This document shows, piece by piece, positions 45,587-56,322 of a DNA stretch of 56,322 nucleotides (positions are counted from its first letter, which is position 1; each line of letters starts with the position of its first letter). The DNA is taken from positions 1-56,322 of the IMG/VR virus record IMGVR_UViG_3300051212_000212. One strand, written 5' to 3'. Under the pieces are notes generated by a model. That model did not search any database and had not been told where the DNA came from. It saw only the letters and a program-made list of their open reading frames with translations. This DNA is from a virus (lineage: Duplodnaviria; Caudoviricetes). A program made the translations under genes and the position numbers.

Positions 45587-45617
45587 TGCTATAATAGTAG
45601 ACTAAGAAAAGAGAACA

Positions 45618-46622
45618 ATGACAATCGCAATAGATGATATATTAGCAAAATTAGATACAAAAACTAGAAATAGAGTTCAATCAGCAGTAGATGTACAGAT
45701 AGAAAAGCAGGCTACCCCAAGCATAGGTTTAAACTTAGCTTTAAGGGGAGGACTTGGATTCGGAAGACAGGTATTAATCTGGGGAAACAAGTCTGCTGGT
45801 AAATCTTCTTTTTGTTTACAGATGATTGCAGAAGCACAGAAGGCTGGTAAGTCTTGTGCTTGGATCGATGCTGAGGCTTCATACGACCAGAAATGGGCGG
45901 AAGAGTTGGGCGTTGACTCATCTAAACTAATATATTCCTCTGCTAAAACTATTAATGACATGGTGGATGTTGCTACTCAGTTAATGGAGGCAGAGGTAGA
46001 TGTTATTGTTGTGGATTCAATTTCAGCGCTACTTCCAGCAATATATTTTGAAAAAGATTCCAATGAATTAAAGAAGCTTGAAGACACCAAGCAGATAGGA
46101 GCGGAAGCAAAGGACATGACCCATGCGGTCAAGATGCTAAACTATGCAAACAAAAACACATTACTTGTTCTTATCTCACAACAAAGAAATCAATTTGGCT
46201 CTATGCATGCATCCCACATTCCAACAGGAGGAATGGCTGTTAAATTCTTCTCTTCCACTGTTATCAAGCTCTGGTCTAGCGAAGCCGAAGCGAATGCTAT
46301 TAAGGCTGGTGTTAAGGTTGGCGACAAGATTATTGAGCAGAGAGTCGGACGCCCAGTCAATTGGATTATTGATTACAACAAACTCGGACCGCCCAATTTA
46401 TCAGGACAATATGACTTCTATTTCCAAGGAGAAGCAATAGGAGTCGATCAGATAGGGGAAACCTTGGATGTTGCAGAAATGTGTGGCATTGTAGAAAAAG
46501 GTGGAGCCTGGTATACAGTTGATGGGCAAAGATTGCAAGGACGAGCAAAAGCAGTTCAATATCTAAAGGAAAACACAAAGGTTGCAGAAAAACTTCGCAA
46601 GGAAATTTATGCCAAATATTAA
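45618..46622 (+). CDS. recA: RecA recombinase
   Basis: 'GGLGFGR', Walker A GNKSAGKS, 'AWIDAE', 'VVDSISAL', 'PTGGMAVKFFSS', 'GAWY'. Confidence 0.93.
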   Translation: MTIAIDDILAKLDTKTRNRVQSAVDVQIEKQATPSIGLNLALRGGLGFGRQVLIWGNKSAGKSSFCLQMIAEAQKAGKSCAWIDAEASYDQKWAEELGVDSSKLIYSSAKTINDMVDVATQLMEAEVDVIVVDSISALLPAIYFEKDSNELKKLEDTKQIGAEAKDMTHAVKMLNYANKNTLLVLISQQRNQFGSMHASHIPTGGMAVKFFSSTVIKLWSSEAEANAIKAGVKVGDKIIEQRVGRPVNWIIDYNKLGPPNLSGQYDFYFQGEAIGVDQIGETLDVAEMCGIVEKGGAWYTVDGQRLQGRAKAVQYLKENTKVAEKLRKEIYAKY

Positions 46623-52786: not shown

Positions 52787-53052
52787 GTATATATCAAGAT
52801 AAGGCTAAGGAATGCAAGTGTTGTGGAAAGCATGTTCCACTTCCTACGACATTAAAAGAATACAATAATATAATGCTATGCCCCACCACATTCGCAAACG
52901 TGATAGAATATAAGAGACTATGGAAATCTCTTGGCAATAGACCGCCAGGAAGTATACGTAAACATTTTTCTGATTACGTACAAAAAATAGTTGAAGATAC
53001 TATTGACAAGAATGAGGACGGGACAATACAATTAGACACTAAGCAGCAATAG
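52783..53052 (+). CDS. Hypothetical protein with CxxC-like motif
   Basis: ATGA coupling with terL; CKCC...LCP. Confidence 0.6.
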   Translation: MSIYQDKAKECKCCGKHVPLPTTLKEYNNIMLCPTTFANVIEYKRLWKSLGNRPPGSIRKHFSDYVQKIVEDTIDKNEDGTIQLDTKQQ

Positions 53053-53116
53053 CTTAGTTGGTTAGAGCCCCCGACTCATAATCGGGTAGTCGTAGGTTCA
53101 AGTCCTACTTGCTGCA
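53043..53116 (+). tRNA. tRNA with CAT anticodon (elongator Met or Ile2); CCA not encoded
   Basis: Acceptor stem GCAGCAA/TTGCTGC, D arm GCTT..GAGC, anticodon stem CCCGA-CTCATAA-TCGGG, T arm GTAGG-TTCAAGT-CCTAC. Confidence 0.92.
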
Positions 53117-53648: not shown

Positions 53649-53710
53649 ATATATGGGTCGCCATTCGGGGCCCATATATTAATTTATTCGCTTGAAGGAG
53701 GAATAAAATG
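53649..53710 (+). promoter_or_regulatory. ROSE-like RNA thermometer in the hsp20 leader
   Basis: Two hairpins; the 3' hairpin TTATTC-G-CTT/GAAG/GAGGAATAA carries UCGCU with a bulged G opposite the SD; promoter TGCTATAAT at 53640. Confidence 0.65.
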
Positions 53711-54130
53711 GTTACAACATATACATGGGACCTTTTCAAGGATCCCTTTTTTATTGGCTTCAACAATATGGTTGATCGCCTAAATTCAGTTCATACAACA
53801 GCAACACATCAATCTTATCCGCCATATGACGTGGCTCAAATTGATGAAAATGAATATATTGTTAGCCTTGCAGTAGCAGGTTTTAGCAAGGAAGATATAA
53901 CCGTTGAGGTTGATAATGGAACTCTTGTAATTAAAGGTGAAAGAGATATTGAGGATGCTCCAAAGCATGTAATTCATAAAGGAATTGCTGCAAGGAAATT
54001 TACTCGCACCTTTGCTCTCGGAGAATATATGGAGGTGTCCAGTGCTCAGTTGGAGAACGGCCTTCTTAATATTCATGTGGAACGAATCGTCCCAGAAGAG
54101 AAAAAGCCAAAGACAATCAAAGTCAAATAA
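53708..54130 (+). CDS. hsp20: Small heat-shock protein (Hsp20/IbpA-like)
   Basis: 'SYPPYDV', 'LAVAGFSKEDI', 'HKGIAARKFTRTFAL', 'A.LENGLL.I', 'PEEKKPK.I'. Confidence 0.93.
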   Translation: MVTTYTWDLFKDPFFIGFNNMVDRLNSVHTTATHQSYPPYDVAQIDENEYIVSLAVAGFSKEDITVEVDNGTLVIKGERDIEDAPKHVIHKGIAARKFTRTFALGEYMEVSSAQLENGLLNIHVERIVPEEKKPKTIKVK

Positions 54131-54140
54131 GGTATAATGA

Positions 54141-54247
54141 TCTTGGGCATAGTTGCCTAGGATAGTCGGGGGAGACAGCGACTCAAAATAACTGGTATAG
54201 TCCTGAGCATGACTGTAAAAAACTGCTCCTAAAAATTTAGGAGAAAT
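54141..54247 (+). ncRNA. Structured 5' leader: two hairpins, an H-type pseudoknot and an anti-SD hairpin (candidate cis-regulatory RNA)
   Basis: Complementary segments read directly from the sequence (see finding); GGTATAAT -10 at 54131. Confidence 0.5.
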
Positions 54248-54655
54248 ATGTACGAATATCGTGTAAAAAAGCTTGTAGGAGTTGTAGATGGAGATACCAT
54301 CGATGTTGATATTGACCTTGGCTTTAATGTTTCATACTCTCAACGAGTTAGGCTTGCTGGCATAGATACTCCAGAATCCCGCACCAAAGATAAGTTCGAA
54401 AAAACACTTGGACTTGAATCAAAAGAATATATCAAGTCAAAGTTAAAAGATGCCACTGATATTGTTATTAAAACAGAGCTCCCAGACTCTTCAGAAAAGT
54501 ATGGAAGAATTCTAGGCTGGCTATTCGTAGATGGATCTTTAAAATCTATTAATGAGCAAATGATAGAAGATGGATACGCTTGGTCATACATGGGTGATAC
54601 TAAGGTAAAAGACTTTGCTGCCCTTGCAGAAAAGAGAAAGAAAAGCGGTAAGTAA
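54248..54655 (+). CDS. Thermonuclease (SNase-like)
   Basis: 'VVDGDTIDV', 'RVRLAGIDTPE', 'KYGRILG', 'INEQMIEDGYA'. Confidence 0.9.
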   Translation: MYEYRVKKLVGVVDGDTIDVDIDLGFNVSYSQRVRLAGIDTPESRTKDKFEKTLGLESKEYIKSKLKDATDIVIKTELPDSSEKYGRILGWLFVDGSLKSINEQMIEDGYAWSYMGDTKVKDFAALAEKRKKSGK

Positions 54656-54837
54656 TGCCTGCATATGACTACAAGTGTGTACTTTGTGAACACGTCAAAG
54701 AAGTTAACAAGTCTATTAATGATGCAGCAATGGTTGAGCTTTGTGACAAGTGTGGTGCTGCAATGATTAAGCAGTTTGGTACATTTGGAATTCAGTTTAA
54801 GGGTTCTGGCTTTTACAAAACAGATAACGCTAAGTAG
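54655..54837 (+). CDS. FmdB-family zinc-ribbon protein
   Basis: 'MPAYDYKC..C...C.KCG...FKGSGFYKTD'. Confidence 0.85.
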   Translation: MPAYDYKCVLCEHVKEVNKSINDAAMVELCDKCGAAMIKQFGTFGIQFKGSGFYKTDNAK

Positions 54838-54887: not shown

Positions 54888-56322
54888 TTGACTAGGACTA
54901 AGTTATGGAGATTGTCATTAGCCGCCATTTTAGGGTTTGGTTGGCTATTTCTCACACCCGCTTCTTATAGCGATGACCCTCTAAGCTTAGCCGCTCAAGA
55001 AATACAAGAGCTAAATGAAAAAGTAAGCAATCTAAATGAAGAAGCTGAAACTCAAGCCCTTATAGATATAGCAGAAGATAAATACGATGATGCAGTAGCC
55101 GCAAAAGATGCTAGAGATGATGCCTATGATGCATATGATGCGTCGTTAGCAGCAGAAGCAACAGCATTACAGGAAAAAAATACAGCTCAAACTGCTGTAG
55201 AAAACCAAACTCCAATAGTTGCAACAGCCTTAGAAGATAAAAATGATGCACAAGATGCTTTAGATATAGCAAATATAAATCTACAAACAACGCAATCAGC
55301 AGTTCAAAATGCTGGCAATCAAGGACTACAATATACTGTATACCATCTTACAAGAGGATGGAACGGCGTAGCAATACCAGATTCAGTTATATGTACTGGA
55401 GTATGGAATTCAAATTCAATGCAGCCACCAGTATGCGGTTATTATGAAAACTTTATAGTTAAATTTACTGGAAAGATTACGGTTCCTTCTCATTGGACCA
55501 CCACATATTTTGCTGGATATACAGATGATGGATTTAGAATGTATATAGACGGACAGCTTGCAATTGATGAATGGGTAGAAAAAGGATCTTCCTGGAGTGA
55601 GTATTCTCCAATTTATAATGTTAGTCAGGACAAAACATTAGATGTAGAAATATGGTGGTATAACGGTGGAGGCCCAGGTTACTATCATCTTGGATGGGCA
55701 ATTCCTGGGGGTTGGACAGGAGCGGGATGTGATTATACTGGAGGCTGGGGTATAGGATTTAGTTGTAATCTAAATACATTTTCTTATGGTGTAGGTGCAA
55801 CACAATCACAAATTGACGCATATAATGCAGCAGTAACTGCACAGGCGGCGGCACAGACAGATTATAATAACAAACTTGCTACATACAATACCGCAAACTC
55901 TACATTAACTACATACAATCAAACATTAACAACTAAGACTAATTCGTATAATACTGCAGTAACAAATACAGCAAATGCTTTAACTGCTAAAAATAATACA
56001 CAATCAACCTATGATCAATCTATCATTGATTTAAATAATGCAATAGATGATGCATGGGAACTATATAATGAAACTTGGCAATTTGAAGAACAACAAAGAA
56101 TTCAAGCAGCTATTGCTGCCGCTATGGCAAATCAACCACAGCCAACGCCAGAACCTACAGTAGAACCAACTCCAGAACCTACGCCTGAGCCATCGCCTGA
56201 GCAAACTGAACCAGACGATCCCACTCCAACTCCAGATTCCGAAACCACAGATGAACCGACGCCAGATCCAACTCCTGAACCAGAGCCCACTGTTGAGCCT
56301 TCACCAGAGCCTTCACCTCTGC
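54888..56322 (+). CDS. Secreted/surface protein: signal peptide, coiled coil, PA14 domain, Pro/Thr/Glu-rich linker (3' truncated)
   Basis: AAGGAG SD, TTG at 54888; LTRTKLWRLSLAAILGFGWLFLTPASYS signal-like; 'FIVKFTGKITVP...AGYTDDGFRMYIDG..AIDEW'; PEPTPEP repeats. Open to the window end, so absent from the ORF track. Confidence 0.8.
   Translation, partial: MTRTKLWRLSLAAILGFGWLFLTPASYSDDPLSLAAQEIQELNEKVSNLNEEAETQALIDIAEDKYDDAVAAKDARDDAYDAYDASLAAEATALQEKNTAQTAVENQTPIVATALEDKNDAQDALDIANINLQTTQSAVQNAGNQGLQYTVYHLTRGWNGVAIPDSVICTGVWNSNSMQPPVCGYYENFIVKFTGKITVPSHWTTTYFAGYTDDGFRMYIDGQLAIDEWVEKGSSWSEYSPIYNVSQDKTLDVEIWWYNGGGPGYYHLGWAIPGGWTGAGCDYTGGWGIGFSCNLNTFSYGVGATQSQIDAYNAAVTAQAAAQTDYNNKLATYNTANSTLTTYNQTLTTKTNSYNTAVTNTANALTAKNNTQSTYDQSIIDLNNAIDDAWELYNETWQFEEQQRIQAAIAAAMANQPQPTPEPTVEPTPEPTPEPSPEQTEPDDPTPTPDSETTDEPTPDPTPEPEPTVEPSPEPSPL

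Follow-up and report, generated by a model that had tools for sequence, protein, structure and literature searches.

A small, covarying pseudoknot recurrent in phage intergenic regions and its possible place at RNA 3' ends

Near the end of a 56,322-nucleotide stretch of viral DNA (Duplodnaviria; Caudoviricetes; positions 1–56,322 of IMG/VR record IMGVR_UViG_3300051212_000212; the whole stretch is referred to here as the window), an hsp20 gene is followed by a gene encoding an SNase-like nuclease. In the region between the two, an initial annotation described a compact H-type pseudoknot, mutually exclusive with a hairpin hiding the Shine-Dalgarno (SD) sequence of the nuclease gene, and proposed that the two folds form a translational ON switch gating a potentially toxic nuclease. 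This raises the question of whether the pseudoknot is real and, if so, what it serves. Comparison with other phage contigs revealed that the pseudoknot is not due to chance but is instead a real and strongly covarying phage RNA family, namely, a module of about 31 nt, folding as an H-type pseudoknot on the sense strand and recurrent in phage intergenic regions. In the lineage to which the window belongs, the knot travels with hsp20, with the nuclease being an optional gene behind it. As for function, the reading favored here, to which a probability of about 0.4 is assigned, is that of a self-contained structural module placed at the 3' ends that termination, RNase P or ribozymes give to RNAs.

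The helices and loops of the window copy, all on the plus strand, are as follows.

54194–54232, plus strand: the whole pseudoknot module, matched by covariance model R1 with 32.9 bits (E = 5.4e-8)
54196–54202, plus strand: 5' arm of the first helix (P1), TATAGTC, with a family-wide core, AGTC, at 54199–54202 and a nearly invariant closing C
54203–54204, plus strand: loop 1, CT, fixed in all search anchors used and the same in all variants seen
54205–54209, plus strand: 5' arm of the second helix (P2), GAGCA, sitting within the P1 hairpin loop
54210, plus strand: junction nucleotide, T (in the family, T in 99, A in 65 and C in 18 of 198 copies)
54211–54217, plus strand: 3' arm of P1, GACTGTA
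54218–54223, plus strand: loop 3, AAAAAC (in the family, two variable nucleotides and AAAC, the commonest length being six)
54224–54228, plus strand: 3' arm of P2 (P2b), TGCTC
54226–54243, plus strand: alternative hairpin, overlapping P2 by 3 nt and covering the SD sequence GGAG at 54240–54243; lineage-specific and not family-wide

The pairings put forward initially are all present in these letters. P2 consists of five Watson-Crick pairs, the A-rich linker lies where it had been placed, and the alternative hairpin joins CTCCTAA (54226–54232) to TTAGGAG (54237–54243) through seven pairs around an AAAT loop, such that C54226–C54228 is used by both folds. The claim of a seven-pair P1 also holds for the window, one of the pairs being a wobble (T54198·G54215), but across the family only the inner four pairs (AGTC/GACT) stood, the outer three being lineage-specific. 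When 54131–54270 was folded with RNAfold, a tool that cannot score pseudoknots, both the P1 hairpin and the SD hairpin were formed; the minimum free energy of this segment (-37.6 kcal/mol; z = -3.85) was equaled by none of 200 shuffles.

To assess conservation, relatives of the nuclease were collected from viral contigs (323 confirmed, 80 kept) and the 130 nt upstream of each were compared. The same motif was found upstream of many of them, with compensatory changes in P1 pairs and, in one copy, a double change in P2. The two conserved blocks, written as a strict pattern, matched at least 119 further viral contigs; among the matches listed, P1 comprised at least three contiguous pairs in 139 of 146 and at least four in 111 of 146. 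A covariance model (R1) was built from 105 copies in other phage contigs, with P1 alone given as structure. Apart from the match listed above, the best score in the window was 9.6 bits and no other match fell below E = 0.5, meaning that the window holds a single copy. In other loci, the model recovered many additional copies that had been missed by the strict pattern.

In an alignment of 106 distinct model-aligned copies, 92.6% of the cells were paired, as compared to 77.1% in shuffles, with none of 500 shuffles reaching the observed value. Double changes in three P1 pairs numbered 49, 61 and 53, the closing pair was C-G in 101 of the 106 rows, and the second pair was solely A-U (52) or U-A (50). 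The four central pairs of P2 contained no unpaired cells while including changes from G-C to A-U, from A-U to G-C and from C-G to U-A. Because P2 was absent from the structure of the model, this covariation was not built in. Compensatory variants of P2 were also encountered elsewhere (GGGCA/TGCCC, GGGTA/TACCC, AAGCA/TGCTT, AGGCA/TGCCT, GAGTA/TACTC and GGACA/TGTCC). A second alignment, drawn from loci chosen by their neighbouring proteins only, with rows having at least four P1 and at least four P2 pairs and with four off-consensus candidates dropped, contained 98% paired cells and P2 double changes numbering 3, 12 and 3. Covariation in homologues, which the initial annotation had named as a check, was in this manner seen in both helices. 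The 106-copy alignment further contained 33 G·U or U·G wobble cells; read from the opposite strand, these would become A·C mismatches, which assigns the fold to the sense strand and hence to RNA. Of the 50 model matches at E ≤ 1 in the protein-picked nuclease loci, 48 were on the gene strand, as was every match at E ≤ 0.01, and only 11 of 198 copies lay inside a same-strand open reading frame (ORF) of at least 60 amino acids (aa).

The resulting consensus comprises a P1 of three to seven freely covarying pairs closed by C-G, a CU loop, a P2 of GAGCA/UGCUC, a single-nucleotide junction and a third loop of NNAAAC. Across the copies, the stacked helix amounts to about 8 to 12 pairs, since P1 ranges from three to seven. 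The first position after P2b is A in 134 of the 198 copies and G is nearly absent from the second (3/198), with ACCA being the commonest tetranucleotide at this site (18/198; 9%). The preQ1-I (RF00522) and SAM-II/SAM-V aptamers are about 30–35 nt long and are built from a short covarying hairpin, the loop of which pairs with the last nucleotides of a 3' tail rich in A, in many cases near an SD sequence. The comparison with preQ1-I and SAM-II drawn initially was borne out insofar as the phage element is likewise a very small H-type pseudoknot with an A-rich third loop. Unlike those aptamers, the phage knot has a 1-nt junction and a five-pair P2 of other sequence, elicits no Rfam match at E ≤ 10 and precedes genes that do not cohere into one pathway, no ligand being indicated; moreover, its copies stand before tRNAs, ribozymes and runs of T.

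That the element belongs to no named family was also upheld, in that Rfam 15 holds no match at the knot. At the gathering threshold, the whole window returned only a tRNA (53043–53116), and the region 54050–54350 returned nothing at E values up to 10, riboswitch and ribozyme models included. In 15 carrier loci, the only Rfam matches beside the knots were tRNA, tmRNA (transfer-messenger RNA) and hammerhead models, with nothing falling on the knot itself. Literature searches found no description of the knot, and one employing the letters of the motif returned unrelated primers only; the knot could still be an entry, with no function assigned, in the candidate tables of a catalogue of 10,006 candidate RNAs from IMG/VR (PMC10690425), a source available here in part. 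Likewise, those parts of 2026 preprints on tRNA mimics and genome-language-model mining that were available do not mention it. Identity with the drum motif was considered and rejected, given that drum, as described in the available part of PMC5737381, is terminator-linked and tied to DUF3800-type genes. The element is absent from Rfam and apparently uncatalogued.

Carriers of the knot include cyanophages, mycobacteriophages, T7-like Paracoccus phages, Vibrio phages, gut Firmicutes phages and contigs binned with Saccharibacteria. Four complete cultured phages contain exactly one copy each: Mycobacterium phage Labelle (56436–56471), cyanophage S-RIM4 (45608–45643), the T7-like Paracoccus phage ParKuw1 (28604–28639) and Vibrio phage D456. 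In some uncultured lineages, as many as seven copies are found within 15 kb, or three stand in tandem. Among contigs from cellular genomes, chance explains most matches of the strict pattern, 89 of 120 having fewer than four P1 pairs and lying in apparent coding sequence; the 31 with at least four P1 pairs are on contigs that carry labels of many phyla, and may stem from prophages or from phage DNA caught in the binning. Where a stop codon lay within 60 nt (97 copies), it preceded the loop by 9–13 nt in 53. Often, the knot stands 5–9 nt after a stop codon and/or some 20–30 nt before a start codon. One-sided placement of either kind is common, with 50 copies lying no more than 20 nt from a stop and yet more than 100 nt from the next ORF, and 37 lying near a start only. 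The genes upstream include members of the DUF932 and Hsp20 families (assignment of a ~338-aa upstream gene as major capsid was ruled out, the product being DUF932), while the downstream ORFs are diverse, forming 46 crude clusters among 123.

What stands directly behind the knot was counted over 245 distinct copies. A same-strand tRNA begins 4–13 nt after P2b in 16 of these, whereas a tRNA is found within 200 nt upstream in only two; three of the 16 knot-adjacent tRNAs were also found by Rfam. In one locus (L295), two type III hammerheads adjoin the knot (RF00008; 50.5 and 41.2 bits), with the GUC/GUA cleavage site lying 6 nt after P2b, and a unit of gene, stop codon, knot, ribozyme, SD sequence and gene is repeated for two successive genes. 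Two more hammerhead-like cores were recognized by regular-expression match only. A T-run (at least five in eight positions) begins 0–3 nt after P2b in 74 of the 245 copies, against 14–30 copies for later offsets and 17 for the 5' flank; under a stricter definition (at least six in eight), the count was 39, as opposed to 2–11 at control positions.

Intrinsic terminators are recognized by a structure with a U-tract right behind it, and 3' exonucleases need a longer tail than that left behind a structure by nearby cuts such as those made by RNase P or a hammerhead. In the favored reading, the knot would accordingly end up at, or help make, the 3' end of the upstream RNA. P1 would be locked by the A-rich loop 3 lying in its minor groove, with P2 being the helix next to the end; such locking is proposed because the geometry is shared with luteovirus frameshift knots and small riboswitch aptamers. 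In copies with a U-tract, P2 would act as the terminator stem. In those followed by a tRNA or a hammerhead, a cut just behind the knot would leave it on the upstream RNA, together with a tail of too few nucleotides for a 3' exonuclease to grip. In the remaining copies, that of the window included, the knot stands in a short AU-rich spacer before the next gene. For the window itself, this would mean that the knot ends or caps hsp20 messages, with read-through RNA carrying the nuclease, the SD sequence of which could be masked by the lineage-specific hairpin competing with P2, as a secondary effect. Termination, exonuclease protection and any effect on translation are all read from what the copies have as neighbours, whereas the structure, the spread and the neighbours themselves were observed directly.

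Several known systems offer partial parallels to such an arrangement. Like intrinsic terminators, the knot puts a stable structure directly before a U-tract in the 74 copies mentioned, yet the stem in question is the second helix of a pseudoknot (five to six pairs, with a 12-nt paired "loop") rather than a GC-rich hairpin, and most copies have no U-tract. Like the 3' stabilizing hairpins made by RNase III in T7 early mRNAs, it is intercistronic in polycistronic phage RNA. At the 3' end of MALAT1, as at that of MEN-beta, a triple-helical element stands before a tRNA-like RNA that RNase P cuts. Similarly, in the 16 tRNA-adjacent copies, a few nucleotides separate a compact tertiary structure, rich in A, from a downstream tRNA, the 5' processing of which would give the upstream RNA its 3' end. 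MALAT1, however, is a eukaryotic nuclear RNA in which a U·A-U triple helix clamps an encoded A-tract, and there is no sequence or family relation to the phage knot. In the frameshift pseudoknot of luteoviruses such as beet western yellows virus (BWYV), a stem 1 of 4–5 pairs goes together with a loop 1 of 2 nt, a junction of 1 nt and a loop of 6–7 nt, rich in A, that is able to lie in the stem 1 minor groove. The phage knot presents a nearly identical geometry, with P1 often lying 5–9 nt after a stop codon, but is found outside ORFs, in contexts that require neither a slippery heptamer nor an extended frame. A role as a -1 frameshift or readthrough stimulator was rejected, given that the start of the next gene comes about 20 nt behind the knot, leaving no extended frame, and that no plus-strand ORF spans the knot in the window.

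The same neighbours bear on three other proposals. Were the knot directed at RNA polymerase as a put-like processive antiterminator acting in cis, a universal target of this sort would explain the conservation of its sequence, the single copy seen in the early/non-structural region of complete genomes would be in place, and so would the position downstream of a conserved TATAAT box in the hsp20 lineage. Still, a T-run behind some 30% of the copies runs counter to the needs of an antiterminator, the close distance at which tRNAs and ribozymes follow would go unexplained, and many copies come directly after stop codons, far from promoter-like sites, such that this role is very unlikely. That the knot is itself a new small self-cleaving ribozyme could be imagined from its invariant loop nucleotides within a pseudoknot, its intergenic place in phages and its hammerhead and tRNA neighbours. 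Yet, at about 31 nt, it falls below the sizes known for self-cleaving classes in general, would be redundant beside the working-type hammerhead in L295 and was matched by no Rfam ribozyme model, the hammerheads being separate, adjacent elements; this we consider most improbable.

A third proposal rests on the nucleotides that follow P2b. With P2 stacked on P1 and followed by A(CCA), the knot might mimic a tRNA acceptor arm (the acceptor/T minihelix), such that RNase P would cut the knot itself within loop 1, or else RNase Z or the CCA-adding enzyme would act on it. The prevalence of A at the first position, the near-absence of G at the second and the rank of ACCA among the tetranucleotides are all as expected of such a mimic, and the knot does adjoin tRNA genes. 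There is also precedent in bacterial RNase P RNA, which, according to the available part of PMC12710915, cuts a small H-type pseudoknot in loop 1 if RCCA follows. On the other hand, ACCA occurs in just 9% of the copies, a stack varying from about 8 to 12 pairs would poorly serve enzymes measuring about 12, no T-loop is present, and the tight spacing to real tRNAs would be unneeded were the knot the substrate. Mimicry of a tRNA is hence deemed rather unlikely.

To decide which of its neighbours the knot serves in the lineage of the window, the flanking genes and signals must be brought in.

53708–54130, plus strand: hsp20, the upstream gene (Pfam PF00011; E = 8.8e-21)
54133–54138, plus strand: candidate TATAAT box right after the hsp20 stop codon, with AAGACA 17 nt upstream (10 of 12 positions matching)
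54140–54163 and 54164–54183, plus strand: two more hairpin modules, seen in the centroid fold and shuffled among relatives, where their presence or absence is mosaic
54248–54655, plus strand: the SNase-like nuclease gene, downstream (Pfam PF00565; E = 2.2e-15), an optional neighbour of the pseudoknot, with its start ATG at 54248

The hsp20 stop codon ends at 54130, 66 nt before P1, and no plus-strand ORF spans 54131–54247. When loci were picked by the nuclease, the knot was directly upstream in only 32 of 80. Across loci L001–L200, 35 of 86 nuclease homologues carry the knot, 32 of these also having hsp20 upstream, while of the 51 homologues lacking the knot, 50 lack hsp20 upstream as well. 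By contrast, among 80 loci fetched by Hsp20 alone, one of which is cut off, a model match lay just downstream of hsp20 in 63, in each case on the gene strand, and nine more contained the covariant GGACA/TGTCC copy, bringing the total to 72 of 79. The next gene in the 63 loci was the nuclease in 19 and another gene in 44. These counts do not sustain the idea of a switch dedicated to a toxic nuclease, since the knot tracks the upstream hsp20; nor does the fact that the same element stands before tRNA genes, hammerheads, T-runs and many unrelated genes in unrelated phages. For the window, the notion of a metabolite-gated toxic nuclease is removed. A ligand or a protein as partner of the knot is conceivable, although none of these results indicates one.

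The competition of P2 with a strong SD hairpin (-8.3 kcal/mol) for the CTC shared by the two was confirmed in the window. As a conserved gate, however, the masking hairpin failed, in that a stem of at least five pairs between P2b and the SD sequence was found in 24 of 73 distinct segments, as compared to 18.6 when the letters of P2b were shuffled. In most relatives, the segment between P2b and the start codon folds with -1 to -2 kcal/mol; in a minority, as in the window, the hairpin is strong. A more general form of the switch would have a ligand or protein stabilize the pseudoknot, freeing CUC from the anti-SD hairpin and turning on whichever gene comes next. The overlap and the strong hairpin of the window accord with this, as do the nearly constant distance of about 20 nt between knot and start codon in the hsp20 lineage, the SD sequence and start codon found within 55 nt after the knot in 73 of the 245 copies, the likeness in size and topology to the smallest riboswitch aptamers and the invariant loops, which would suit a binding pocket. 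Even so, the downstream genes are very diverse, copies right before tRNAs and ribozymes have no SD sequence, a locus may contain up to seven copies or three in tandem, and the P2b–SD stem is unenriched. Moreover, the first position after P2b is mostly A, whereas an anti-SD CUCC needs C, and no Rfam riboswitch model matched. Generalized in this manner, the switch is unlikely.

RNA from the hsp20 lineage was considered in metatranscriptomes, available as assembled contigs only. In three freshwater/riverine metatranscriptomes, summed contig depth over hsp20 (53655–54185) was far above that of its neighbours and fell across 54186–54362, contig depth not being a measure of expression. In one relative, an RNA contig ends at 54229, 1 nt past P2b. 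Contigs stopping at 54132 and 54170, and the shallow or uncovered part beyond 54186, were set aside, as none of these can be taken for a transcript end. Taken together, the contigs weakly fit the 3'-end reading. A second, abundant RNA contig end, at 54191, on the 5' side of the knot, runs into an Illumina adapter. Ends on both sides of the window copy would also be expected if the knot were freed by flanking cuts to act in trans, as a small RNA or decoy binding a conserved host factor, such as a defence or RNA-processing protein. Sequence conservation across phages of actinobacteria, cyanobacteria, proteobacteria and gut Firmicutes, a copy number of one to seven, with tandem arrays, and processing sites next door would fit this as well. 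However, no sign of an abundant small RNA was seen, the bin 54186–54362 having little depth in any of the three metatranscriptomes (short RNAs tend to be lost from libraries of this kind), no partner has come to light and no consistent 5' processing signal was seen; a decoy is quite unlikely.

Several observations weigh against placing the knot at 3' ends. Behind the window copy stands no T-run, no tRNA and no ribozyme, and in the hsp20 lineage it is the distance to the next start codon, some 20 nt, that is nearly fixed, whereas that to the stop varies from 6 to 94 nt, with other hairpins in between. Elsewhere, 37 copies lie near a start and far from a stop, as would fit a role in a 5' untranslated region as well. 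The single copy per complete cultured genome means that the knot is not a general cap for phage mRNAs. Among the RNA data, the abundant end at 54191 lies on the wrong side of the knot, and contig ends can reflect strain mosaicism. Finally, the loops and P2 are near-invariant across phages of many host phyla, a degree of conservation that seems to exceed the needs of a passive roadblock and hints at a specific partner or ligand.

A bolder version of the 3'-end reading takes in this last point. Here, a 31-nt, triplex-type pseudoknot, as a very widespread class of phage RNA, would be a universal 3'-end module, serving as a terminator when combined with a U-tract and as an exonuclease-proof cap when combined with an RNase P or hammerhead cut, the phage counterpart of the MALAT1 arrangement, with invariant loops possibly binding a universal ligand or host factor, by which the fate of the upstream message would be decided. 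As a whole, this version is doubtful, if conceivable. Were it true, the knot would be among the smallest conserved RNA folds known and yet among the most widely shared cis-elements of phages. It would offer a simple marker of transcript boundaries in uncultured phage genomes, a compact part with which to stabilize or insulate synthetic transcripts and a test case for pseudoknots replacing hairpins in termination and exonuclease blocking. As several of the carriers are cultured, function is directly testable.

Two further phage systems call for comparison. The operator of T4 gene 32 also belongs to a phage and consists of an H-type pseudoknot that precedes an AU-rich stretch and an SD sequence. 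[quoted passage not shown] According to the part of PMC10690425 available, the gene 32 operator pseudoknot is also without an Rfam model. The PeSL cassettes of T4-type phages, as presented in the available part of PMC4122927, are simple stem-loops with sigma-70-like promoters within one phage group. The resemblance lies in both being short conserved intergenic modules at junctions of shuffled genes, with the window offering a TATAAT box and interchangeable hairpins after hsp20; the difference is that the knot is a covarying pseudoknot common to unrelated phage groups.

Within the hsp20 lineage, the candidate TATAAT box is kept in relatives (TAGTATAAT/TGTATAAT). After the hsp20 stop codon and this box, relatives show variable combinations of hairpin modules (window 54131–54183; L005, L006, L008, L017, L036 and others). 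Two of the modules are those of the window, while a third, not present there, has TCTGC...GCAGA outer arms around CCCC...GGGG; these modules look like shuffled regulatory cassettes of the PeSL kind. A sigma-70 promoter overlapping P1 (TGGTATAGT, 54193–54201; GAGACA-18-TATAGT, 9 of 12 positions) was rejected, as the -10 hexamer is not conserved: at the position of TATAGT, relatives have AATAGT, GATAGT, ATAGAC or ATGGAC, with pairing maintained. A minus-strand terminator called at 54243–54226 was dismissed because it mirrors the palindromic SD hairpin; all long ORFs in this region are on the plus strand. No plus-strand terminator was called in this region of the window, where the knot is followed by CTAAAAAT, with no U-tract.

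The seven remaining Hsp20-picked loci (L363, L378, L388, L395, L397, L400 and L401) contain, in place of the knot, a different structured element of about 85 nt. Sitting some 10–130 nt after hsp20, it comprises an outer stem (CCCCACACAGG...CCTGTGTGGGG) and two inner hairpins, with a TATAAT box behind, and shows compensatory changes in six of 27 predicted pairs; no Rfam match was obtained in the five loci scanned.

Other features of the window were noted. The tRNA gene at 53043–53116 (plus strand; Rfam RF00005, 72.5 bits) lies between ORFs of 89 and 103 aa upstream of hsp20, with no pseudoknot copy in front of it. The Zn-ribbon gene found at 54655–54837 of the window comes directly behind the pseudoknot in many relatives (L335, L351 and others), such that the SNase-like nuclease looks like an optional gene, inserted or lost between the pseudoknot and the Zn-ribbon gene. 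A long ORF (54888–56321, plus strand) that runs off the end of the window encodes a coiled-looking N-terminal part, rich in A/T/Q/N, and a tail of repeats rich in PT/PE.

In other carriers, a BLAST search of one multi-copy locus against cultured phages returned no close relative. Following several knots in a multi-copy lineage (L086, L117 and L155), a repeated AAAATTTTCGACC...GGGCGTGTCG is found, which may be a phage-specific promoter or another repeat. Clusters of a DnaA-box-like repeat, TTATCCACA, are seen 30–60 nt after some knots (L088, L092, L101 and L144), which suggests a replication origin beside the knot in that phage lineage. Rfam tmRNA-like and permuted-tmRNA matches occur in the knot-bearing loci L193 (11486–11558) and L134 (11778–12019), with that in L193 beginning about 95 nt after a copy of the knot. 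Lastly, a P-loop protein with a common GLPG-type N-terminal motif is encoded right after the knot in ParKuw1 (L321, 1553–1990), where it matches Pfam AAA_33 (PF13671), and in two freshwater contigs (L052, 3016–3774, and L159); this shared neighbour may be a coincidence.

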